Shown in pieces: positions 4,705-16,124 of a stretch of 64,000 bases of DNA (positions are counted from its first letter, which is position 1; each line of letters starts with the position of its first letter). The stretch lies in NCBI GenBank assembly GCA_965223335.1, contig OZ244991.1, positions 320,001 through 384,000 of the forward strand. Direction: 5' to 3'. A program made the translations under genes and the position numbers. The notes beneath the pieces are model-generated. The model saw nothing but the letters and a program-made list of their open reading frames with translations. It had not been told where the DNA came from and ran no database searches. Source of the stretch: Thermodesulfobacteriota bacterium. Lineage in GTDB: Bacteria; Desulfobacterota_D; UBA1144; Nemesobacterales; UBA2774.

Positions 4705-6213
4705 TTATCGGGGGAATGTAATTTCAAAACAGGTTTTTTCACCCGTCTCCATTTTTACTTCCCCACCCAGCTGCGCAGTAAGGTCGGCAACCAGTCGTAA
4801 ACCCAGTGTTTCTGAGTTCTCAAGGTCAATATTCTTGACAAAAGATTTACCGTCATTGCCAATCCTCAAACAAAAGGCTGTCTCATCCCTTTCAAACTCT
4901 ATATTTATGTTCCCTTCCCCACCCTCTGGGAAACCGTGCTGGATGGCATTCGACACAATTTCGTTAATCAATAATGCGCATGGTATAGCAGAGTTGATAT
5001 CCAAAAGCACTCCCTCGGATCTGATGTGCAGACTTATATTGTCTGACAAGGGTGAGTATGACCTAATTAGGTCACGGGCCATTTTCTTTATATAGTGCGA
5101 GAAATCAATCCTCGACATGTCTTCCGAGCGATAGAGCAGTTCGTGGAGCATGGCTATGGACTTAATCCTGTTTTGAATATCCTCGCACATCTGGTTAACC
5201 TCGGGGTTACTCATCTTTCTCGACTGCAACTTAAGCAGACTCATTACGATCTGTAAATTATTTTTTACCCTGTGATGCACCTCTCGGAGCAACACCTCTT
5301 TCTCTTTTAGCGACGCAGTTGTCTTCTCTTCGGCCCTCTTACGCTCCGAGACCTCATGCATAAGCATGGCATTGGATTTCACAAGCTCCACGGTACGTGC
5401 GTACACGCGTTCCTCCAGCTCCTCTCTAGCCTCCTGGAGTTCGGCCTGCGACTTCTTGATGGCCTCGGTCTGCCTTACATTGCTAAGCGCAACCTCGATC
5501 TGCTGTACTGCAAGCTCAACGAGATCCACGTCGACCTCACTAAATGCGTATTTCTCGTGTGACTGTATTTGGATACAGCCTTCGACCATGCTCTTGCTAA
5601 ACAAGGGGACCGATATGTAACTCTTTACCCCTATAGTTTTCTCCAGGTTCTCCGAAGACGGGTCAAGGTCTGTGTCGGGCACACTCCGTGCGGCGCCCTC
5701 GTTGATCGTTAACCATGCCGAGCCTTCGGGGTATGGCAGTCTATTTAGCTTGCTGATCTCGGTTTCTTCGTACCCGTAGCTACCTTTTAGCAAGAGATCA
5801 TTGTGGTGTCTGAGATAGATTAATATCTTCTCGGCGTTAGACATATATTTGCTTATGGTTTCGACAGAGTTAATAAAAACACTCTGTAATTGGCTTGAGG
5901 AATGCACGCTCTTTGCAATCGCTCGTATAATTTCCCCATAATCTCTATTTGTATCTCCCTTTAGGGGTTTTGTCTTGGTTTTATGCCCCACCGGTTCACC
6001 CTGAGTACTCTGAAGCTCATCAATCAACATCTCTCTCTCATGGATCATGTCCTCGAGCTTTTTGCATTTTTTCTCTAATTCCTCGTATTTGGAAAAGAGA
6101 TCTTCATTCGTGTCGTCTACAGAGACCGACCCGGTGCTCGATTCCACATTTAACCCCTTTTCTTTTCTACTCATATGATCCATTTTATAAGAGCTTTGTG
6201 TTTTTAATGACAT
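4705..6213 (-). CDS. Soluble GAF-domain sensor histidine kinase (HisKA_2 family)
   Basis: GAF ([15 protein letters not shown]...FSEVDVDL), [12 protein letters not shown]-box, [13 protein letters not shown]-box, DGKS, LGLRLV; no TM helix. Confidence 0.92.
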
Positions 6214-6614: not shown

Positions 6615-7277
6615 CTAGAACCTAAATCCTAGTCTACCACCGTATGTTCCAAAGGAACCGTTGGTTCTATCTACCCAGTTGTAGCGGCCTTCTACACCTA
6701 CAAATACCTTGTGAGTGATATTGAAATCAACTCCGCCACCGATATGTAGACCAAGCTCGGCATTACCCTGTCCTGAGGGGAACCCGTTACGCTGTAACTC
6801 ACCTGGCTGTGGAGCAATACCTCCTACGTTGTTACCAGGATGACTCTCGTTAAGAAATATGTTGAATCCAGGCCCGCCCACTAGATAAGGCTGTACAATC
6901 TTATGGGCTTCGATCTTATACTTGAGTCCCAGCAATATTGTTACCGTATCCAGGTTTACACTGGTCTGAGTCGGGAGTGCTCCCGGTACCAAGGCATTGG
7001 CAGTAGGCTGAAACGTTACCTTGTCGTCTGTGCTACCCCAACCGATACTTACAAGACCCATTACTTTACCAGGCCCCACCGGCTTAAATAGCGGTATACC
7101 TAACTCACCTGACATATAGAATCCTGTACCTGTTTTAAAAGGTCCGGTCTGCGCACCGACTGTCACTGCAAATTCGCCTCCAATAAGACCCTCCTCAGCT
7201 TTTGCGGTACTAAATGCAACTAACATAGCTACTGCAAAAACAACAGTAGCTATATACCTCGGGCTGTTTTTAAGCAT
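6615..7277 (-). CDS. Small outer-membrane beta-barrel protein (OmpW/OmpA-barrel-like)
   Basis: Signal peptide (..AFSTAKA/EE), alternating amphipathic strands (QPYLVGGPG, GGGVDFNI, VGVEGRYNW), C-terminal GRLGFRF; SD AAGGAGG. Confidence 0.85.
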   Translation of the reverse strand: MLKNSPRYIATVVFAVAMLVAFSTAKAEEGLIGGEFAVTVGAQTGPFKTGTGFYMSGELGIPLFKPVGPGKVMGLVSIGWGSTDDKVTFQPTANALVPGALPTQTSVNLDTVTILLGLKYKIEAHKIVQPYLVGGPGFNIFLNESHPGNNVGGIAPQPGELQRNGFPSGQGNAELGLHIGGGVDFNITHKVFVGVEGRYNWVDRTNGSFGTYGGRLGFRF

Positions 7278-7635: not shown

Positions 7636-8262
7636 CTATCTCTCTCTTAGATCCAGGTTATTAATCCTAAATCCTACTTCACTGCTATCCAGAAAATTGT
7701 TTACTGCATCTACAAAGGTCTCAAGCACACCGATACCTAGACTCGCACTCGATGTAAAAAATGGGAACTGTATGCCTAATTTCTCATTCAAAAACGAAGT
7801 GATATCAACTGGTATATGCCCTACCAAATCGTGCTTGTTATACTGGATCACTAAAGGATAATTCCTCATTGAGTTGCAGCAATGCTTCAAGAGAATGTCC
7901 TCTAAATCATGAAAGGCTTCTACATTCTCCTCAAGCTTCTCGGGCCTAAGATCGATTACGAACACGACTGCGTCTGCATCGGACAATACCTGCTCTCTGA
8001 TCTGTCTATAGGTTTCCTGCCCCGGGACTGAATACACCGACACTTTTAAAAGATTCTTACCTTTGGTAAAAACCTTTTTAGAGATGTGGTCGAAGAACAC
8101 AGTGCGTTCCCCCTCTTTGGTTAAAAACCCAGTGTCTATAGCCCATTTCTTGGCAAGCTCACGGACGTTTGTAGTTTTACCAACCTCGGGTGCCCCAGTA
8201 TACACCAGTTTCATATTATAAAATTTTTTGCTTCCTACCTTATGTACTTGCATTATAATCAC
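7636..8262 (-). CDS. mglA: MglA-family small GTPase
   Basis: KLVYTGAPEVGKTTN (G1), ERTVFFD (G2 with intrinsic Arg), SVPGQ (G3), QYNKHD (G4), SSASLGIGVLET (G5). Confidence 0.88.
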   Translation of the reverse strand: MIIMQVHKVGSKKFYNMKLVYTGAPEVGKTTNVRELAKKWAIDTGFLTKEGERTVFFDHISKKVFTKGKNLLKVSVYSVPGQETYRQIREQVLSDADAVVFVIDLRPEKLEENVEAFHDLEDILLKHCCNSMRNYPLVIQYNKHDLVGHIPVDITSFLNEKLGIQFPFFTSSASLGIGVLETFVDAVNNFLDSSEVGFRINNLDLRER

Positions 8263-8282
8263 CTATGTTCAGCGATGCATAT

Positions 8283-8780
8283 TCATCCCGTCTGTAGAAT
8301 ACTCTCCTTATTTGTATTAATGTCCGTAGGCATACGATATAAGTAACAGATGACAGCAATACCGATCAACCCCATCGTAATTTGACCTATTATCATCGGG
8401 ATAAAGAATATTATTGATGTACTCATCGTAACCGTGATCAAAGCAATTGCATACAACTTTGTATTCTTAGGAATTACACCGTGTTTTCTCCAGTTGTGTA
8501 TATATGATCCGAAAATACGGTTTGTCATTAGCCAAACATAAAATCTGCGGGACGACCGCGCCCAGCACGCAGCCGTGAGCAACAAAAACGGAGTTGTGGG
8601 CAATATCGGCAAGAAAATTCCCAATAGACCTAATGCTAAACTCAGCATCCCACCGATTTGGAGCAGGACCCTGGTTACACCGCATTTTGCAAGCGCAACC
8701 TCTGCTTCGTAACACACTTGATTATCCTGGCTCTCCGCCTGTTGTGTAGTAACATCAATCAACCGCATTGTCTCTTGCAT
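8283..8780 (-). CDS. ybaN: YbaN / DUF454 family membrane protein
   Basis: LGLLGIFLPILPTTPFLLLTAACWARSSRRFYVWL...FGSYIHNW; overlaps the upstream gene by 22 nt. Confidence 0.9.
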   Translation of the reverse strand: MQETMRLIDVTTQQAESQDNQVCYEAEVALAKCGVTRVLLQIGGMLSLALGLLGIFLPILPTTPFLLLTAACWARSSRRFYVWLMTNRIFGSYIHNWRKHGVIPKNTKLYAIALITVTMSTSIIFFIPMIIGQITMGLIGIAVICYLYRMPTDINTNKESILQTG

Positions 8781-9742
8781 TCTCCAGTATGTGTATGTGA
8801 GAGCGTCCTTGCTTTCTTCAGAACCATTGCAAGATTAGCATCACACGGGACCAGCATACAGAGCACCGTACGCTCATCATTTCTCTGACGAATATATATA
8901 TAGATATATGATTCCGTGATACACACCATTTCTTTGAAATAATGTTCCTTCGATACAACACCGTGTGCTCTTTTCCATATTCTCTCAATCTCAGAAACTT
9001 TTTCACCCTCGAATAGGCCTATTGCAGCGCTTGTGATCACGTTAATTACCTCTACCGGGAGTTCTTGGCTAATCTTGACCGACAATAGATCAGAACTATC
9101 CAGATTAATCAAACCGCAAGCTATAACCCCAGGCACATCGTTAATACAATTTTCTACTATCGGATAAGGACTAGTACTTACAAGTGGAATAGTTTTGGAT
9201 TGAGCAAGCTCGGGTGATTCGTTGAGAGTTTGTTCGGTGCGTGACTCAACTACCACGGGCGTTTCGTTTGTAGTATTTATACCGCTGTTTTGTTTAATAA
9301 AATCTTCGTAGTGATATACGAATTTTTCCTGCGCATTAGTCTGGATGTAGCTCCTGTTGCGGCTTCGAATCTCTACTATTGCTTCTTTGGGGGTCCTACC
9401 CATAGACACGAGTGTACATGCCAGTATGGTTCCGGTGCGTCCGAGTCCCGCTTTACAGTGTACGAGCACAGGGACTCCGCAGTTTAGGTTTTTTACAATC
9501 TCGCTGCAAATCTTCTCAGCATTCCTGGGTGTTGGAATACTCATATCGCGTATTGGAAAATGCCTGACATCAAACCCATTATCCAAGTATAGCGGATCAA
9601 TTGGATCCTCAGTTAGAGTGACAATCAATTTTATTCCAATAGAGTCCAGGAACTCTATATCGTTCTCATGCACATCTATGAGACCTGGTCTCCCTGATCC
9701 GGCTAACTTTTTAGGTAGTATCCATTTGAATCCAGTAATCAT
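8759..9742 (-). CDS. Dual-specificity (Cys-based) protein phosphatase fused to a C-terminal Roadblock/LC7-like domain
   Basis: FKWILPKKLAGSGRPG, HFPIRD, catalytic HCKAGLGRTG (CX5R); C-terminal ~130 aa align by eye with the 10781-11176 protein. Confidence 0.88.
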   Translation of the reverse strand: MITGFKWILPKKLAGSGRPGLIDVHENDIEFLDSIGIKLIVTLTEDPIDPLYLDNGFDVRHFPIRDMSIPTPRNAEKICSEIVKNLNCGVPVLVHCKAGLGRTGTILACTLVSMGRTPKEAIVEIRSRNRSYIQTNAQEKFVYHYEDFIKQNSGINTTNETPVVVESRTEQTLNESPELAQSKTIPLVSTSPYPIVENCINDVPGVIACGLINLDSSDLLSVKISQELPVEVINVITSAAIGLFEGEKVSEIERIWKRAHGVVSKEHYFKEMVCITESYIYIYIRQRNDERTVLCMLVPCDANLAMVLKKARTLSHTHTGECKRQCG

Positions 9743-9768
9743 ATCGTTGTCCTTCGTCTATTTTATGC

Positions 9769-10563
9769 TCACGAACCCATTCTCACATAATACTTTGCTC
9801 TGGGGTGTGAGGGATTAGTAAAGAATTTATCGGCACTTGCAGCTTCGATTATCTCTCCATCTACTATAAGAACAACAAAGTCAGCTACTGATTTGCTAAA
9901 CTCAAGATTGTGCGTTGATAAAATAATAGTTTTTTTACCTCGAATATCGTTTAATTTCGTTATTATCCACTCCATATGCTCTTCCCAAAGATTAGTATCG
10001 GGTTCATCGAGAACGAGATAGGAAGATCTATTACTAACCGCAATTGTAAATAACGCTAATCTCTTCACATACTCCGGTAGCAACTCTAACGGTGTCTCGA
10101 GATCCGTTAAAGTTAAAAGAATCCGAGCCGCTTCCGGAACACACGTCCATGTGCGCTTGATTTTTTGTTTTATGTCACGTGTAGTGGGCCAACTTCTACT
10201 AAACAAATGATAAAGCGAAGCTTTTCCTAAATTATGTTTTTGAGTTAAGTATGATGGCTTACTATTTGGTAAAACTAGCATTCCCTTTCTAAACAGTTTA
10301 TTGTTATCGTCATTGCTTTTTTCACATTCGATTTTTTTCTTATTATTATTTTCACGAAAATGGCAATCTTCGATTTCACAGTCTACAGCATCACATTGCC
10401 CGGCTAGTACTTTGAGCAAAGTGCTTTTACCGGCTTTACACAGACCCATCAAAACCGTTGTTTTCTTTTCGGGGAAATCAAATGAGAGGTCCTCAAATAT
10501 ATCGAATTGTCCATAACCAATTTTCACGTTACGTGCTGTTATCATTGTATTATTCCATCCCAT
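9769..10563 (-). CDS. Orphan ABC-type ATPase with degenerate signature motif
   Basis: Walker A GLCKAGKS, Walker B/D-loop LVLDEPDTNL, H-switch LSTHN, C-term FFTNP; LSGGQ position reads LPEYV; no permease nearby. Confidence 0.8.
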   Translation of the reverse strand: MGWNNTMITARNVKIGYGQFDIFEDLSFDFPEKKTTVLMGLCKAGKSTLLKVLAGQCDAVDCEIEDCHFRENNNKKKIECEKSNDDNNKLFRKGMLVLPNSKPSYLTQKHNLGKASLYHLFSRSWPTTRDIKQKIKRTWTCVPEAARILLTLTDLETPLELLPEYVKRLALFTIAVSNRSSYLVLDEPDTNLWEEHMEWIITKLNDIRGKKTIILSTHNLEFSKSVADFVVLIVDGEIIEAASADKFFTNPSHPRAKYYVRMGS

Positions 10564-10631
10564 TCGTCATATATCTTATATGCAACATCCCTATTCCAAT
10601 TCTGCCCATTCCCCAGATCAGGCATTATCAG

Positions 10632-10745
10632 TTCTCTTAATTCCAGTAAAAATGTTTTGTATTTAGGGCATTAAACCTTCTCAGCAACGCCGAGAATGAT
10701 GTGATTTAATGCCCGTGTAGTCAATTTACTGGTTAGCTAAGAGAA
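10632..10745. repeat. Nested inverted repeats (long imperfect hairpin) inside the operon
   Basis: TTCTCTTA/TAAGAGAA, CCAGTAAA/TTTACTGG, GGGCATTAAA/TTTAATGCCC, TTCTC/GAGAA, all concentric. Confidence 0.75.
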
Positions 10746-10780
10746 ACAACAAAAAAACTATAGCTAACACATCATAGGCA

Positions 10781-11176
10781 CTAAATAGTTTCGCTTGTGG
10801 CTATAGCCTTAGCCTTAGCCAATACCATACCTACGTTTGCATCTGCACTACATACAACACACATCACAGCTCTATCATTAGAATCCAAACGAGAAAAGTA
10901 ATGCAATAGATGCTGTGAAAACACTATTATTTGATTGAAATAGTGTTCGTTTCCTTTCACACCTCTTGCCTTCTTGAAAATGTTCTCGATACTCACAACA
11001 TTCTCGCCCTCATAGAGGTCCTTTGTGGCTGGTGCAAGAAGATCAACTACCTCTTGCGGGTGGCTGTCTACAGTCTTGATACCAAAAAGAATTCCAGTAT
11101 CCAAATCGACTACACCTGCAGCTACAGCCTTAGGTACGTCTTTCATACAGCTCTCAATGATCGTATCTACACTCAT
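10781..11176 (-). CDS. Standalone Roadblock/LC7 (MglB-like) domain protein
   Basis: Start moved to the ATG at 11176 (SD AAGGAGGT); MSVDTIIESCMKDVPKAVAAGVVDLDTGIL...ANVGMVLAKAK fits the roadblock helix/strand pattern. Confidence 0.78.
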   Translation of the reverse strand: MSVDTIIESCMKDVPKAVAAGVVDLDTGILFGIKTVDSHPQEVVDLLAPATKDLYEGENVVSIENIFKKARGVKGNEHYFNQIIVFSQHLLHYFSRLDSNDRAVMCVVCSADANVGMVLAKAKAIATSETI

Positions 11177-11217
11177 AGATAGATACCTCCTTAAAATTTT
11201 ATTCAACATTATATCAA

Positions 11218-11232
11218 GCAACATCCATGCCA
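11218..11232 (-). promoter_or_regulatory. Sigma-54 (-24/-12) promoter of the roadblock/GTPase operon
   Basis: Minus strand TGGCATGGATGTTGC = TGGCAY-N5-TTGC, about 41 nt before the ATG at 11176. Confidence 0.8.
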
Positions 11233-11325
11233 TCACTTGACTGTATGTAACCAATTATAATCATTGAATATAATCAATATGAGAAACTACAAAACAACAA
11301 GTTGTGAACCAATTTGGTAATGCTC

Positions 11326-11354: not shown

Positions 11355-11598
11355 TGACAATGAAGTATGTGAAAGTTTTAATATTGGTGAACTGCAGCAC
11401 TTGACGCAACACCTCAACATCATTGATTAATACTTGATATAGAGTGATAGAATTATGTCTTACAAGAAAGTGTCAGAATTTGCAACATGTAAGACGCGCC
11501 CGTAACTTTACCTCAGCACAACCTCAACCTAGAGCAAATTTCTTTTTTCAATGATATAATATATGCGTATTCTATTAATAGCATAGGAGATGCTTAGA

Positions 11599-12069
11599 AT
11601 GTCTAACCTAAATAAAATACTTTCGGACCATTTCTGTTTCAAAGGGCTTCATGATGCAGATCTACAAAACATAATCTCCAGAGCCTCGGAAGTACGGTTT
11701 TCGGAAGGTGATTTCATATTCAGCGAAGACGATGTCGCCGACCGATTCTATATTATATTAGAGGGCAGAGTAGCCCTTGAGACCAAGCTAGCACCCGATA
11801 GAGACCCCATTACAATTCAAACACTAGGCGCAAACGATGTACTGGGTTGGGCATGGCTCTTTCCGCCACATACGGCACACTTCGATGCAAGAGCGCTCGA
11901 CGATACCCGTGCAATCTCACTCGATGGCGATTACATCCGCAATATGTGCGAGGAAAATCATGACCTCGGCTATGAGCTCTTTAAGCGCTTCACGAAGGTG
12001 ATGCAGCAAAGGCTCCATGCTGTTAAGCTTCAAAATCCCGATATGTATGTAGTGAAATCTAAACCATAG
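11599..12069 (+). CDS. Cyclic-nucleotide-binding (cNMP/Crp-like) domain protein without HTH
   Basis: FSEGDFIFSEDDVADRFYIILEGRV, DVLGWAWLFPP, FDARA; the ATG at 11599 fits SD AGGAG better than 11590. Confidence 0.88.
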   Translation: MSNLNKILSDHFCFKGLHDADLQNIISRASEVRFSEGDFIFSEDDVADRFYIILEGRVALETKLAPDRDPITIQTLGANDVLGWAWLFPPHTAHFDARALDDTRAISLDGDYIRNMCEENHDLGYELFKRFTKVMQQRLHAVKLQNPDMYVVKSKP

Positions 12070-12145
12070 ACTACACATACCGCCAATACCTGACGCCATC
12101 TGGTTAAGAGATACTATCCATATCAAATGGTGCAAGGGGTAATAC

Positions 12146-12565
12146 CTATGATATATGTGCGCTTACCTCATTCTTAATCCTATTGTAGACGGCACTAAGC
12201 CCATAAATGCGCCTTGTCCCCAGTTTTTGAGCCAACCCCAACTCATCTAAGAGCGTTTCGGGGGCCTCAAGTACATCTGTAGGGCTAGAGCCGCCAAACG
12301 CATCCACAAGCAAAGACACAAATCCCCTCACAGCGGGTGACTCCCTAGGCACTTGGGCATGTAGCTCCACCACTCCATCTGTGACATCCACCCACAGATA
12401 TACAGGTGTCTCACATTCCCGGACTCGCTTGGTCTCATCGGTTGGAAGGTCTTTTAATACGGGGGGTAGATCGGGAAGATTGTCCGAGTAGTCTAGCAAC
12501 ATAGCCATGGTCTCCTCGGGATCAGCATCCCGGAATATCTCTATGATATCGTCTAGTTTACTCAT
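12146..12565 (-). CDS. sufE: SufE-family sulfur acceptor
   Basis: RVRECETPVYLW, SPAVRGFVSLL, LGL...LGTRR..GL. Confidence 0.9.
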   Translation of the reverse strand: MSKLDDIIEIFRDADPEETMAMLLDYSDNLPDLPPVLKDLPTDETKRVRECETPVYLWVDVTDGVVELHAQVPRESPAVRGFVSLLVDAFGGSSPTDVLEAPETLLDELGLAQKLGTRRIYGLSAVYNRIKNEVSAHIS

Positions 12566-12782
12566 GAGCCTCTTTTTGAGCCCTGCACAATTTGTTCTCT
12601 AAGGGATTATAGTATTAATAGAGCTCAAAATAGCAATATGTTTGTTATTTCGCTAATAAATTCATATTTTTGGTATTTTAAAGCCTTAAACAGCAAATTA
12701 TGCCTTCTTTTGCTTACTATTTTATGTTATCATAGTAAGTAGTGTAGGTGGGATACGTACACTCCGTTTAACAATTTAGGGG

Positions 12783-13256
12783 GTGAGATTATCCATGTTG
12801 GAAGATCTAAAGGTAAGAGACCTTATAGGCATAAGAGACAGAATATTCTTTGTGGAAGCAGAGGATAATGCTGACGTAGCGGCATTAAAACTAAGGAACT
12901 TTAACGTAAGGACCATAGGTGTTATGCACGAAGGTCAAATTGTGGGTGTTGTGGGTCAATCGGATTTTTCCACAAAAATCGTATCCGTTGGAAAGAACCC
13001 CTTGGACGTAAAAGTAAAAGATATCATGAGTACTAAACTGCATACAGTCTCGTTGGATTCTTCGTTTATAGAGTGTCTGGACCTAATGGACTCGCATAAT
13101 ATATCTCACCTGTTTATATTAGATGAAGACGGTGATTATCACGGGATGTTGTCGTGGAGAGACCTACAGCAAAGACTAGTAAAGGAACTCAAATACCAAC
13201 TCAAGATGGCGCAGGAATATGCATTTGGGCCACACATAAACGAAATGAGCAGTTAG
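12783..13256 (+). CDS. Tandem CBS-domain protein
   Basis: IVGVVGQSDF, VKVKDIMS, LDLMDSHNISHLFI, GMLSWRDL. Confidence 0.88.
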   Translation: MRLSMLEDLKVRDLIGIRDRIFFVEAEDNADVAALKLRNFNVRTIGVMHEGQIVGVVGQSDFSTKIVSVGKNPLDVKVKDIMSTKLHTVSLDSSFIECLDLMDSHNISHLFILDEDGDYHGMLSWRDLQQRLVKELKYQLKMAQEYAFGPHINEMSS

Positions 13257-13280
13257 ACCTCGGTTAAAAGGGAACTCACA

Positions 13281-13493
13281 TTGACAGACACAGAATCAAC
13301 GGAATCAAAAGAAGCAAAACCCACCGAGAGCACCCAAGTTAAAAAAGGTTTAATGGAGCGGCGTCGGAGTTTCGCTCAATCGAGTGTACCAAATGCTCAT
13401 AGGGGTTATAGCAAGAAAACCCCTGTGATAATGCTTATAATCTATGCGGCTTTTTTCGTCATAAGCATTATTCTGGCAAAGCTCACAGCCTGA
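13281..13493 (+). CDS. Small hypothetical protein with C-terminal TM helix
   Basis: TTG start with GGGA upstream; single hydrophobic C-terminal segment. Confidence 0.55.
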   Translation: MTDTESTESKEAKPTESTQVKKGLMERRRSFAQSSVPNAHRGYSKKTPVIMLIIYAAFFVISIILAKLTA

Positions 13494-13547
13494 TTAATAA
13501 TTTCAGTAGTCCCCTGCCTAACTCACGAAGAAGTTGTACGCAAACTA

Positions 13548-14219
13548 CTAAAACTCTCTATCGAAAGAGGGTACTAGGATTAGGACATCTCTCGGCACAA
13601 CACAAGGCGATTCGTTTGTACACCTTCCGTCGAACTCACCTATTACTAAGCTATCTTTACCGAACTCAACCCCAATCTGGGGCATGCTTAGACAAGGGCC
13701 GTTAAAAAACTGAGTGTTCGAAACCACCTCATTATTATTGCAGGGATTTGTGACCACCCCTCCGCTCTCAAATATTTGAGAATTGTTTTTCTCGCATTCG
13801 TTAAGTCTGATATCGGTCATGTGGCCTCCGGGGTTTATACGCACACTGAGGTCCGCATACCTTGGAGTACACACAAACTCAAAAGGCGAGAGGTCATCGG
13901 TCTGGGGAATGGGGGGCTCTTTGCCCAAGTCCGTGGATAATGAAGCATCCACAACATCTATATCGTATAACTCTCCGTCCAAGATCATAGTACCCCCGCC
14001 ACTTACAGATCCGTCTTCACGCGAGGCAAGTATGTTGATTGCTAGCACTATATCCAGGTTCTCCCCGATCCCGTTTGCATTGAAATCAGGGAGGTTTGCG
14101 GGGCTACCACCGTCACTATCAGCATCACTACCGCCACCACCACAACCGTAAGTGTAGAGGCCGGGCCCGATTATAAAGCAGATTATCAACATAAACCTAG
14201 CGATAGTATCCCAACGCAT
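13548..14219 (-). CDS. Hypothetical exported protein / putative lipoprotein
   Basis: Hydrophobic N-term, then YGC-GGGGSD; several Cys in the mature part. Confidence 0.65.
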   Translation of the reverse strand: MRWDTIARFMLIICFIIGPGLYTYGCGGGGSDADSDGGSPANLPDFNANGIGENLDIVLAINILASREDGSVSGGGTMILDGELYDIDVVDASLSTDLGKEPPIPQTDDLSPFEFVCTPRYADLSVRINPGGHMTDIRLNECEKNNSQIFESGGVVTNPCNNNEVVSNTQFFNGPCLSMPQIGVEFGKDSLVIGEFDGRCTNESPCVVPRDVLILVPSFDREF

Positions 14220-14303
14220 CTCTCTAGAATATGTTACGCATATCGAGTCGGATTTCTATATAGTATGGGGAAAAGAGTCGCTATTATGACCTGCCGCTTA
14301 AAG

Positions 14304-16124
14304 TCATGCCTGCTCCGAGAGCTCGTCGACCAGTGCAATTAACTGTTGACCGGGCTGTGGTTTAATGTTCTTATCCGAAGAGATCACCACAAGTTCTCTG
14401 TCCTCTTTCACTATAAAGAGTGGGATCGCGCTGTCTTTATACAACGCGAGGAATGAGTCGTAATCGAACTCATCTGTAAGCAGTGTCTTTTTAAGCACGG
14501 CACCTTCATCAAAACGATTTTCCAAATAAGAGTATGTAGCCTCAGTGTTAAACAACAGCCGTCCCCTCAGGTGTTTGGGGATGCTCTCTTCGCTCGTGGT
14601 CTTAAATTTAGACTGCTTGGGCAGCTGATAAACCCCGGCTCTGCCGAATATATCCAAGAAGTGCAATGCCGAGAGCGAGTTGATTTCGTCGTTTGATGTG
14701 AGTGCCATGAGCCTTCCCACTCCGCTAAACTCTATCTCGTCCATTACCTCTTCCGAGAGCACATTACCGAAATATGCCCTAAGACCCATCTGTCGCGATG
14801 ACGACACATTTGACCAGTTTGAATCCAGCATAAGCACCTCACAACCGCTGTCCTGCAACATCTTGCCGATACCCCTGGCCCATGAGTGTGCACCGACTAT
14901 AAGTATCCCCTGGGGGTTGGGTGATGCCAATCCTAAGAGCTTGGCCACAGGGGCTGCTGTTAATCCATATAGCGCCACGGTGCCCGTAATAACCAGAAAC
15001 GTCATAGGCACTATAACCTGTGCATTAGCATAGTCTGCCTCCACAAGTCTAAGCGCAAACACAGACGACACCGCGGCTGCAACTATCCCACGAGGTGCCA
15101 TCCAAGATAAAAACAGCTTTTCTTTAAGCGCCGTCCCATTTCTAAGACTCGAAATAAACACAGACGCTGGTCTTACTATGAGCACCAGTATAAGGAGGAA
15201 AATAATGCTTTTTAGAGTGATTACCCCGTAGATATCCTCAAGGTTAAGCCCCGATGCGAGTATTATGAAAAGACTCGAGATAAGTAAAACCCTAAGGTTC
15301 TCTTTGAACTCTATTATGTGCTTTACGCTCACTACTTTTTGGTTGGCTAGTATGATACCCATCAATGTAACAGCCAATAACCCGCACTCCGTTTGGAAGT
15401 AATTAGATATGGTAAACACCGCTACAACCACCATTAGGGATACGGGGTTTTGTAAAAAATCAGGCACCCAATGGTATCTAAGCACAAGGATTAAGAGCTG
15501 TGCCCCGAGAAATCCTGTAGCCCCGCCTATGGCAATGGATTTGATAACAATAAAGATCGTATGCCTGGTCGCCTCCCCTAGACCCCCTGCCAAAATGGCC
15601 TCAAACACAAGTAGTGCCAGGATGGCCCCGATAGGATCAATTACAATCCCCTCCCACTTAATCACAGACCCCACCCTGCCACTGGGTCTAACGTGTCTAA
15701 GAAGTGGAATCACCACTGTGGGCCCAGTCACAACGAGTACAGCACCGAGTAGCGTTGATAGGCGGAGGTCTAATCCCAACACGAAATAGCTAGCAATTGT
15801 TGTAAAAACCCACGAGACCACCACCCCTATACTCACAAGGTTCCTGACAATTACCCCCACCTCTTTTAGTTCCGAGAATTTAAGACTTAGCCCGCCCTCA
15901 AACAATATTATCGCCACAGACACAGAAACTATCGGCAGCAGCAGATTACCGAAAAGATCAACAGGCTTTATCCATCCCATAAAAGGCCCCGCTATGAAGC
16001 CCCCTATAAGCAGCAGCAGTATTGCAGGCAGCCCAAGACGCCATGCCAACCACTGAGCCCCGATTCCAAGTCCTATAATAAGCGCTAGTCCTATTAGATA
16101 AGTCTCAGCCAACGATCCCTCCAA
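14304..16124 (-). CDS. CPA1 (NhaP-type) cation:proton antiporter with C-terminal TrkA-N/RCK domain
   Basis: IILFEGG, VTGPTVV, WEGIVIDPIG, MAPRGIVAAA; C-term ILIVGAH...LMLDSN. Confidence 0.92.
   Translation of the reverse strand: MEGSLAETYLIGLALIIGLGIGAQWLAWRLGLPAILLLLIGGFIAGPFMGWIKPVDLFGNLLLPIVSVSVAIILFEGGLSLKFSELKEVGVIVRNLVSIGVVVSWVFTTIASYFVLGLDLRLSTLLGAVLVVTGPTVVIPLLRHVRPSGRVGSVIKWEGIVIDPIGAILALLVFEAILAGGLGEATRHTIFIVIKSIAIGGATGFLGAQLLILVLRYHWVPDFLQNPVSLMVVVAVFTISNYFQTECGLLAVTLMGIILANQKVVSVKHIIEFKENLRVLLISSLFIILASGLNLEDIYGVITLKSIIFLLILVLIVRPASVFISSLRNGTALKEKLFLSWMAPRGIVAAAVSSVFALRLVEADYANAQVIVPMTFLVITGTVALYGLTAAPVAKLLGLASPNPQGILIVGAHSWARGIGKMLQDSGCEVLMLDSNWSNVSSSRQMGLRAYFGNVLSEEVMDEIEFSGVGRLMALTSNDEINSLSALHFLDIFGRAGVYQLPKQSKFKTTSEESIPKHLRGRLLFNTEATYSYLENRFDEGAVLKKTLLTDEFDYDSFLALYKDSAIPLFIVKEDRELVVISSDKNIKPQPGQQLIALVDELSEQA

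Follow-up and report, generated by a model that had tools for sequence, protein, structure and literature searches.

Introduction

Small-GTPase/Roadblock switches are, to our knowledge, well understood in only a few bacteria, through the polarity system of Myxococcus and the conservons of Streptomyces. Here we describe a block of five genes in a 64,000-nucleotide (nt) stretch of DNA from a Thermodesulfobacteriota bacterium (GenBank assembly GCA_965223335.1, contig OZ244991.1, positions 320,001 to 384,000 of the forward strand), the whole of which we call the window. Read along the minus strand, the genes encode a free-standing Roadblock/LC7-fold protein (Rbl131), an ATP-binding cassette (ABC)-type ATPase, a Cys-based phosphatase fused to a second Roadblock-fold domain, a DUF454/YbaN-family protein, and an MglA-like small GTPase (Table 1). 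An earlier note on this DNA had proposed that all five belong to one signaling system. We favor a narrower reading, to which we assign a probability of roughly 55%: the block would be a horizontally acquired copy of a widespread cytoplasmic signaling module with a Roadblock-ATPase-phosphatase core, and the GTPase would dock on the pair of Roadblock domains.

The MglA-MglB switch of Myxococcus xanthus and Thermus thermophilus (PDB entries 3t12, 6h5b, and 6izw) shares with the block an MglA-type GTPase, with the intrinsic Arg by the G2 Thr and a PGQ G3 motif, near Roadblock-fold proteins. Rbl131 superposes on MglB (template-modeling [TM] score ~0.68), both having a C-terminal helix behind the last strand, and the 2:1 MglB:MglA complex would be matched by the two Roadblock units per GTPase in the block. 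The differences are as follows: (i) the Roadblocks of the block are a separate subfamily invisible to PF03259, with a split, longer helix 2; (ii) the block has a phosphatase-fused Roadblock and an ABC ATPase as an obligate partner; (iii) no RomR, Frz, or pilus/gliding genes lie near it; and (iv) the GTPase is optional in the module family, as described below.

Passages of a published survey (Wuichet and Sogaard-Andersen 2014; PMC4316618) describe conserved operons in which a small GTPase gene is accompanied by one or two Roadblock homologs and a signaling partner, both for Group 3 MglA of beta- and gamma-Proteobacteria and for the actinobacterial conservons (CvnA-D). Apart from their ABC::phosphatase fusion (we write fusions with a double colon), the proteobacterial loci of the module fit the Group 3 sets as those passages describe them. 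The window, in contrast, lacks the 352-amino-acid (aa) protein of those loci, a CvnA-type kinase, and DUF742, and its GTPase carries Group-1 rather than Group-2/3 motifs. No ABC ATPase or phosphatase is mentioned for such neighborhoods in the passages and searchable supplementary files of PMC4316618.

Two further systems resemble the block in part. In Ragulator/LAMTOR-Rag (6ehr and 5y3a), Roadblock heterodimers form a docking platform through which the nucleotide state of a GTPase is relayed to a phospho-signaling enzyme, and LAMTOR chains are among the fold matches of Rbl131. This system differs in being eukaryotic and lysosome-anchored, in having a kinase output (mTORC1), and in having no ABC ATPase; the likeness is one of logic and fold only. 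PstB, from the PstSCAB importer (9k3s/9k3x; TIGR00972), has Walker A, Q, Walker B, H, and C-terminal FFxxP motifs in common with the window ATPase, whereas the latter falls below the equivalog cut-off, has lost the LSGGQ signature, has no PstA, PstC, or PstS genes beside it, and is fused or adjacent to a phosphatase.

Full-text literature searches, in which one PMC4316618 supplementary file was not searchable, returned no description of a Roadblock/ABC ATPase/phosphatase module. The supposition that no characterized system has this composition thus holds for the literature searched, and the exact five-gene set was found at no other locus that we examined. New in the window copy are the phosphatase::Roadblock fusion, a Group-1-type GTPase of a different clade, and evidence of transfer into a phylum otherwise without the module.

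Results

A Roadblock-ATPase-phosphatase triad recurs in many phyla

We scanned for relatives of the block with the phosphatase as query and one genome per species, and obtained at least 415 loci. The window proteins were mapped by phmmer onto all open reading frames (ORFs) of the 80 best-scoring genome loci and the 34 best metagenome loci. Roadblock (Rbl), ABC ATPase, and phosphatase genes occurred together in 72/80 genome loci (51/53 when only loci with full flanks are counted), ordered as Rbl-ABC-phosphatase or ABC::phosphatase-Rbl; the Rbl and ABC genes were adjacent or one gene apart, again in 72/80. The eight loci without the triad were three short contigs (4-7 kb), two ~11-kb loci cut at the contig end, and the three weakest matches (two Latescibacterota loci with full flanks and a Thermomicrobiales locus of ~11 kb). 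Going by their record titles, carriers of the triad belong to at least nine phyla: Planctomycetota, Pseudomonadota (alpha, beta, and gamma), Myxococcota, Acidobacteriota, Bacteroidota, Gemmatimonadota, Cyanobacteriota, Actinomycetota, and Nitrospirota. Cultured carriers include Acidocella aromatica DSM 27026, Plesiocystis pacifica SIR-1, an Ottowia sp., and Marinobacter. Among the metagenome loci, the triad was found in 19/34, the remainder being mostly short or cut contigs. Three loci (L090-L092) read 364-aa-type protein - Rbl - ABC - phosphatase - Rbl, an unfused form of the window arrangement.

Because the core gene set recurs in 72 of the 80 loci, the block stands above chance. Judged by gene content, the conserved unit is smaller than five genes, namely the triad of Roadblock, ABC ATPase, and phosphatase. 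The co-occurrence anticipated in the earlier note was therefore seen for the triad and not for the five-gene set. Its interpretation as a signaling system fared similarly: a signaling-type triad with a Roadblock fold is supported, and the five-gene unit and the YbaN membrane anchor are not.

A small GTPase was present in 31/80 genome loci (23/53 with full flanks). In 19 loci it was an MglA-like G domain, usually N-terminal in a protein of 450-720 aa, and in 15 loci it was a ~180-aa small GTPase, typically in proteobacterial sets that read 352-aa protein - small GTPase - ABC::phosphatase - Rbl131 - canonical Robl_LC7.

Fusions join the module parts pairwise, as ABC::phosphatase, phosphatase::Rbl, and GTPase::Rbl. 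Homologs of the window phosphatase are mostly ~440-aa proteins with an N-terminal ABC_tran domain, so that ABC::phosphatase is the common form; it accounts for most of the 120 homologs listed, and the ABC-phosphatase fusions predicted earlier were found in large numbers. The phosphatase::Rbl fusion of the window also occurs in P0002-P0005 and P0124. The closest homologs of Rbl131 (P0121 and P0122; 60% identity) are GTPase::Rbl fusions, a kind also found at loci L018 and L096, and these four link the Rbl family to a GTPase switch. Other Rbl domains are fused to Ser/Thr kinases (P0127, P0128, and P0154) or to REC-PATAN proteins (P0248 and P0258). The fusions are the strongest evidence that the Rbl131 type would work with an MglA-like GTPase and with protein phosphorylation. 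The proposal that the GTPase is tied to the phosphatase and ATPase thus draws support from GTPase::Rbl fusions elsewhere, but the frequency of GTPases at the loci and the placement of the window GTPase outside the module clade (see below) go against it.

Several other gene families recur beside the triad. A Fer2 (2Fe-2S)-globin fusion protein, often ~525 aa, is found in 20/80 genome loci (e.g., L101:7502-9079, L004, L006, and L013), a ~364-aa family in 15/80, a ~256-aa family in 16/80, and ABC1-type kinases in 9/80. The Fer2-globin protein and the recurring partner families suggest a redox or gas-sensing input. No Fer2-globin, 364-aa-family, 256-aa-family, or ABC1-type kinase partner was detected by tblastn in the window genome. 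Four loci (L025, L028, and L035 from Marinobacter, and L039) hold two complete copies of the module within ~7 kb.

Two Roadblock-fold domains lie outside the Pfam model

Rbl131 had no match in Pfam (E<=0.01), NCBIfam, or the sequences of the PDB, and PF03259 (Robl_LC7) matched neither Rbl131 nor the C-terminal domain of the phosphatase protein. An AlphaFold2 (AF2) model of Rbl131 from a 54-sequence alignment reached a predicted local distance difference test (pLDDT) score of 94.6, with the topology alpha-beta-beta-alpha-alpha-beta-beta-beta-alpha. The best PDB match of this model in Foldseek was a Streptomyces Roadblock/LC7 domain (3kye); further matches included MglB (3t12_B, 6hjm, and 1j3w), MglC (7ct3), LAMTOR chains, and Asgard Roadblocks. 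The matches to 3kye, 3t12_B, 6hjm, 7ct3, and LAMTOR chains had E values of 8e-8 to 3e-5 (probability 1.00, TM 0.6-0.7), with 3kye, 3t12_B, and 6hjm at the top (E ~1e-7). In an hhalign comparison, the Rbl131 family aligned with 13 canonical Robl_LC7 proteins from related loci at 94.5% probability (E 8e-8). Given this probability and the lack of a PF03259 match, the Rbl131 type is a remote Robl_LC7 homolog outside the Pfam model. That the 131-aa protein folds as a Roadblock, as had been suggested from its sequence, is a point on which the AF2 model, Foldseek, and the profile-profile comparison agree. As a lead only, the clusters nearest Rbl131 in the ESM Atlas are unnamed, and the nearest named ones, Robl_LC7 and DUF2173, score <0.9.

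The C-terminal third of the phosphatase protein is a paralog of Rbl131 (36% identity, E 3e-28), and the Rbl131 family profile found it by hmmsearch with an E value of 1.4e-30. A model of the whole protein (mean pLDDT 73.6) gave this domain the same topology as Rbl131 and joined it to the phosphatase domain through a disordered linker (residues 155-187). Paralogy and shared topology thus bear out the phosphatase::Roadblock fusion. The Rbl131 family has 364 cluster representatives at E<=1e-3 (clusters at 50% identity). From the models and profiles, the assignment of Rbl131 and the phosphatase C-domain to a distinct, highly conserved Roadblock subfamily that the Pfam model misses is confirmed.

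A six-frame PF03259 search of the genome (95% complete) found no canonical Roadblock, so no canonical MglB, and the sole two Rbl131-type domains of the genome both lie within the block. It follows that any Roadblock serving the four MglA-like GTPases of this genome (see below) is one of the block's two.

The ATPase lacks the ABC signature and the phosphatase site is intact

The ATPase matched PF00005 (ABC_tran) with 31.6 bits (cut-off 25). Its best NCBIfam model was PstB (TIGR00972), at 73.8 bits far under the cut-off of 343.2, and its relatives in the PDB were YbiT, EttA, and PstB (E 4e-11 to 2e-9). Walker A (G40xxxxGKST48), Q108, Walker B (D186-E187), and H218 are kept, and are present in >=90% of 67 family members. 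The LSGGQ signature is absent: the window ATPase has LLPEY at residues 161-165, and across the family only a Leu and a downstream Arg are conserved in this region. A PstB-like C-terminal FFxxP...F.R.G motif is conserved across the 67 members. No permease, substrate-binding, Pst, or Pho gene was found among the neighbors of the ATPase. Because the nucleotide-binding motifs are kept, the signature is lost, and no permease is nearby, the window ATPase likely binds and hydrolyzes ATP without serving as the usual kind of transporter motor.

The window ATPase also carries an insert at residues ~55-93, after Walker A and before the Q-loop, that is missing from the family consensus. The insert is of low complexity, with many Cys, Asp, Asn, and Lys residues (CDAVDCEIEDCHFRENNNKKKIECEKSNDDNNK), and a metal could be bound by its four Cys.

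The phosphatase domain matched PF22785 with 82 bits and PF22784 with 70.5 bits (cut-offs 27). The P-loop H95-C96-K-A-G-L-G-R102-T103 (HCx5R) and D66 are intact, and were invariant in 11 aligned homologs. The closest solved chain was 25xa_A (E 2e-25), followed by human DUSP23 (E 4e-16). The 25xa entry is a 162-aa "dual specificity protein phosphatase family protein" that aligns to residues 1-146 of the window protein and resembles in size the stand-alone phosphatases of split-type modules; it may be a module member that has already been solved. The genome encodes a second phosphatase of the dual-specificity phosphatase (DSP) type at G000:C1:511268-511705, 30% identical to the window domain (tblastn E 1e-18).

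The GTPase has Group-1 motifs and paralogs elsewhere in the genome

The GTPase matched Ras/Arf/Roc models (Ras PF00071, 46.4 bits). Its best solved relatives were MglA of T. thermophilus and M. xanthus (3t12, 6hjh, and 6h17; E ~2e-20 to 5e-20), with eukaryotic Rabs next at E 1e-7 and weaker. The motifs G23xxxxGKT30, R53-T54, V79-P80-G81-Q82, N142-K-H-D145, and A173 could be read from sequence and alignments, in agreement with the earlier statement that all five G-motifs and the intrinsic Arg are kept. Group 1 MglA is defined, in the passages of PMC4316618, by an Arg next to the G2 Thr and a TVPGQ-type G3, which has a catalytic Gln and no Asp. In the alignment, R53-T54 of the window GTPase falls on the RT pair of MglA from T. 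thermophilus and M. xanthus, and its G3 is S78-V79-P80-G81-Q82, with Ser replacing the first-position Thr of TVPGQ. The GTPase gene lies downstream of the two non-canonical Roadblock domains of the block, two and four genes away.

A homolog search with the GTPase returned one relative, the canonical MglA-like sequence P0269; the search was word-based and is insensitive to divergent proteins. We built a quick maximum-likelihood tree from the GTPases of the window genome and of the loci, with P0269 as the one canonical reference. The 28 module-associated G domains formed one clade (Shimodaira-Hasegawa-like approximate likelihood ratio test [SH-aLRT] 99), and the clade of the window GTPase, P0269, and the module-associated clade met in a three-way fork whose order the quick tree does not settle.

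Three paralogs of the GTPase (40-46% identity) lie at a second locus of the genome (L087; G000:C1:2380000-2398000), which has a GC content of 46%, like the genome. Their neighbors there are five ~450-aa ORFs without a Pfam match, an EcKL-type kinase-like gene, and two MarR-like regulators.

The GTPase::Rbl proteins P0121 and P0122 lack the catalytic Gln of G3 (TPGL and IPSS replace VPGQ), and P0121 has NWQD instead of NKxD. Both may be pseudo-GTPases that bind nucleotide and stay permanently attached to their own Roadblock.

The YbaN gene is not part of the module

The YbaN protein matched PF04304 with 128.9 bits (cut-off 35.1), and scored 104.6 against the Escherichia coli YbaN equivalog NF007818, whose cut-off of 163 was not reached. 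A YbaN gene occurred at 1/80 genome and 1/34 metagenome loci, both of the same locus type and on the opposite strand. With these counts and this orientation, YbaN is not part of the module, and its suggested role as a membrane anchor is left without comparative support. We rejected it on the same counts as a conserved module member or anchor.

Arrangement of the block

The coordinates of the five genes and of the two domains of the fusion protein are given in Table 1.

Table 1. Genes and domains of the block, with positions in the window
Feature	Position	Strand	Basis
Rbl131, free-standing Roadblock/LC7-fold protein, 131 aa	10781..11176	-	Start taken as first ATG
Soluble ABC-type ATPase, 264 aa, PstB-like	9769..10563	-	PF00005
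Phosphatase::Roadblock fusion protein, 327 aa	8759..9742	-	ORF
Cys-based dual-specificity/protein tyrosine phosphatase (PTP) domain, residues 1-152 of the 327-aa protein	9287..9742	-	PF22785, PF22784; limits from structure model
Second Roadblock-fold domain, residues 194-316 of the 327-aa protein	8795..9163	-	Rbl131 paralog
DUF454/YbaN-family inner-membrane protein, 165 aa	8283..8780	-	PF04304
MglA-like small GTPase, 208 aa, Group-1 motifs	7636..8262	-	Ras PF00071

The Rbl131 ORF spans 10781-11254, its frame being open to a TTG at 11254. The Rbl131 and ABC genes are 217 nt apart (10564-10780), the ABC and phosphatase genes 26 nt; the end of the phosphatase gene overlaps the start of the YbaN gene by 22 nt, and 20 nt separate YbaN from the GTPase gene. 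These coordinates agree with the earlier description of five co-directional minus-strand genes, the last four separated by about 25 nt or less or overlapping. Its gene annotations were confirmed as written by profile checks for four of the five, the 131-aa protein having no Pfam or NCBIfam model. A consensus promoter scan gave 16 sites against 13.6 expected, and a consensus terminator scan 2 against 2.8 expected, both at chance level.

Composition, rarity, and synteny indicate transfer from outside the phylum

The block has a GC content of 40.5% against 46.6% for the genome, which bears out the impression of an AT-richer block; the bias is real but moderate, since 3.8% of equal-sized windows on the main contig are as low or lower. 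We compared the block with 120 genomes of the window's phylum. The Rbl131 type and the GTPase were each found in 1/120, that is, in the window genome only, and YbaN in 2/120. Next to the block, the order cyclic-nucleotide (cNMP)-binding protein - SufE - CBS pair - cation/proton antiporter (11590-16124) is syntenic in 6/6 relatives, and this synteny stops exactly at the start of the block. Rarity in the phylum, the GC deficit, and the synteny break together indicate that the block came from a donor outside the phylum. At its opposite end, a GAF-HisKA_2 (HWE) kinase gene (4705-6213) and an outer-membrane protein (OMP) beta-barrel gene (6615-7277) were not found in the 20-kb loci of the six relatives, so the acquisition or rearrangement may reach past the five genes.

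Discussion

The module ties a Roadblock-type switch to a transporter-less ABC ATPase and a Cys-phosphatase, a link that is new to the literature searched. It is broad, with at least 415 genome loci in hundreds of species of at least nine phyla, and its Roadblock domain is shared with Ser/Thr kinases. The window copy is a compact, recently transferred version in which the fused phosphatase::Roadblock protein makes predicted contacts explicit.

In the reading that we favor, free Rbl131 and the phosphatase-tethered Roadblock domain would pair as a dimer, as do MglB2, MglB/MglC, and the LAMTOR pairs. The dimer would dock a nucleotide switch, here the GTP form of the adjacent MglA-like GTPase, and might act as its GTPase-activating protein (GAP). 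Docking would position the phosphatase, bring it in, or release it, while the ABC ATPase, fused to the phosphatase in most other genomes, would be an ATP-dependent clamp or dimerizer that gates phosphatase activity. As output, the phosphatase would remove phosphate groups that Ser/Thr(/Tyr) kinases had placed on proteins, and the kinases that carry the same Roadblock domain, or that lie beside the module in other genomes, would be its antagonists. YbaN would be a lineage-specific passenger. If this wiring is right, the module would provide (i) a direct bacterial bridge from nucleotide switches to Ser/Thr/Tyr phosphorylation; (ii) a new class of clients for the Roadblock family; and (iii) a readily reconstituted system of just three small, soluble proteins.

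A number of observations weigh against this reading. The adjacent MglA-like GTPase would be the obvious client, a coupling that in this genome rests on operon spacing alone. No small GTPase lies within ~8 kb in 49/80 loci, and the module therefore needs no adjacent GTPase. In the quick tree, the window GTPase and its three paralogs form a clade of their own (SH-aLRT 98), outside the module-associated one, and the paralog locus is without any Roadblock gene. A separate promoter could be present in the gap between the Rbl131 and ABC genes. Relatives of the phosphatase of the DSP type include lipid and nucleotide enzymes, with PTEN and phytase-like families among the weaker matches. The sample of 80 loci was taken from the top scores among at least 415 found with the phosphatase query, and its ORFs were called naively.

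The main rival is a switch made of the triad only, in which the ABC ATPase is controlled by the Roadblock pair and in turn gates the phosphatase, with the GTPase and YbaN as bystanders. We regard it as a rather improbable alternative. It would account for the 49 loci without a nearby small GTPase, for the close spacing of Rbl and ABC genes in 72/80 loci, and for the position of the window GTPase outside the module-associated clade. A general role in regulating NTPases has been ascribed to Roadblock proteins (Koonin and Aravind 2000, cited in PMC4316618), and loss of LSGGQ throughout the family fits an ATPase that is no longer a standard ATP-sandwich transporter motor. However, GTPase::Rbl fusions exist whereas no Rbl::ABC fusion was seen among the architectures checked, the GTPases present in 31/80 loci form a coherent clade, and the window GTPase gene starts 20 nt behind the preceding gene. 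A more specific form of this idea, which we likewise hold to be rather improbable, is that an Rbl131-type dimer regulates the ABC-type ATPase, that ATP-driven closure of the signature-less domains gates the tethered phosphatase, and that GTPases, kinases, and REC-PATAN proteins plug in via Roadblock domains of their own. The whole would then be a modular bacterial network of G protein, ATP switch, and phosphatase, with a logic comparable to that of Ragulator-Rag-mTORC1. Were the ATPase indeed a Roadblock client, it would be the first Roadblock/NTPase pairing built on an ATP switch rather than a Ras-like GTPase.

Little supports a defense or a metabolic reading. Defense systems often contain ABC-type ATPases, and the block could be a conflict or defense island, a horizontally acquired NTPase and effector in which the phosphatase would be the toxic part, set free when phage or another attacker strikes. 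In favor of this, the block is AT-richer and foreign to the phylum, the best Pfam model of the phosphatase is named "polymorphic toxin system DSP-PTPase", NCBI labels a Uabimicrobium homolog "putative toxin", and the ATPase has weak generic PADLOC matches to mad3, AriA, PtuA, and GajA. These matches, however, are generic P-loop/Walker B stretches, and the other four proteins match no PADLOC model; the recurrent partners are signaling proteins (REC-PATAN, Ser/Thr and ABC1 kinases, Fer2-globin, EAL, and Group-3-type GTPase sets), and we saw neither a nuclease, protease, or immunity gene nor any secretion/Rhs context. We therefore consider a defense role quite improbable. About as improbable is a role in phosphate or small-molecule metabolism, in which the substrate of a PstB-derived ATPase and the phosphatase would be a phosphorylated metabolite or a lipid, with YbaN perhaps bringing them to the membrane: PstB is the top-scoring named ABC family, the FFxxP...F.R.G motif is conserved, and DSP folds include lipid/inositol-phosphate phosphatases (with weak PF14566 and PTEN matches here), but the PstB equivalog score of 73.8 is far short of the 343 required, the neighborhood is free of Pst, Pho, and permease genes, conservation of the module does not extend to YbaN, the nearest phosphatases of solved structure (DUSP23 and archaeal/bacterial PTPs) act on proteins, and kinase::Rbl fusions indicate protein phosphorylation.

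Finally, we rejected a conservon reading because CvnA-type histidine-kinase-like and CvnC (DUF742) genes are absent from the five genes; the nearby HWE/HisKA_2 kinase gene (4705-6213) is parted from the block by the OMP gene.

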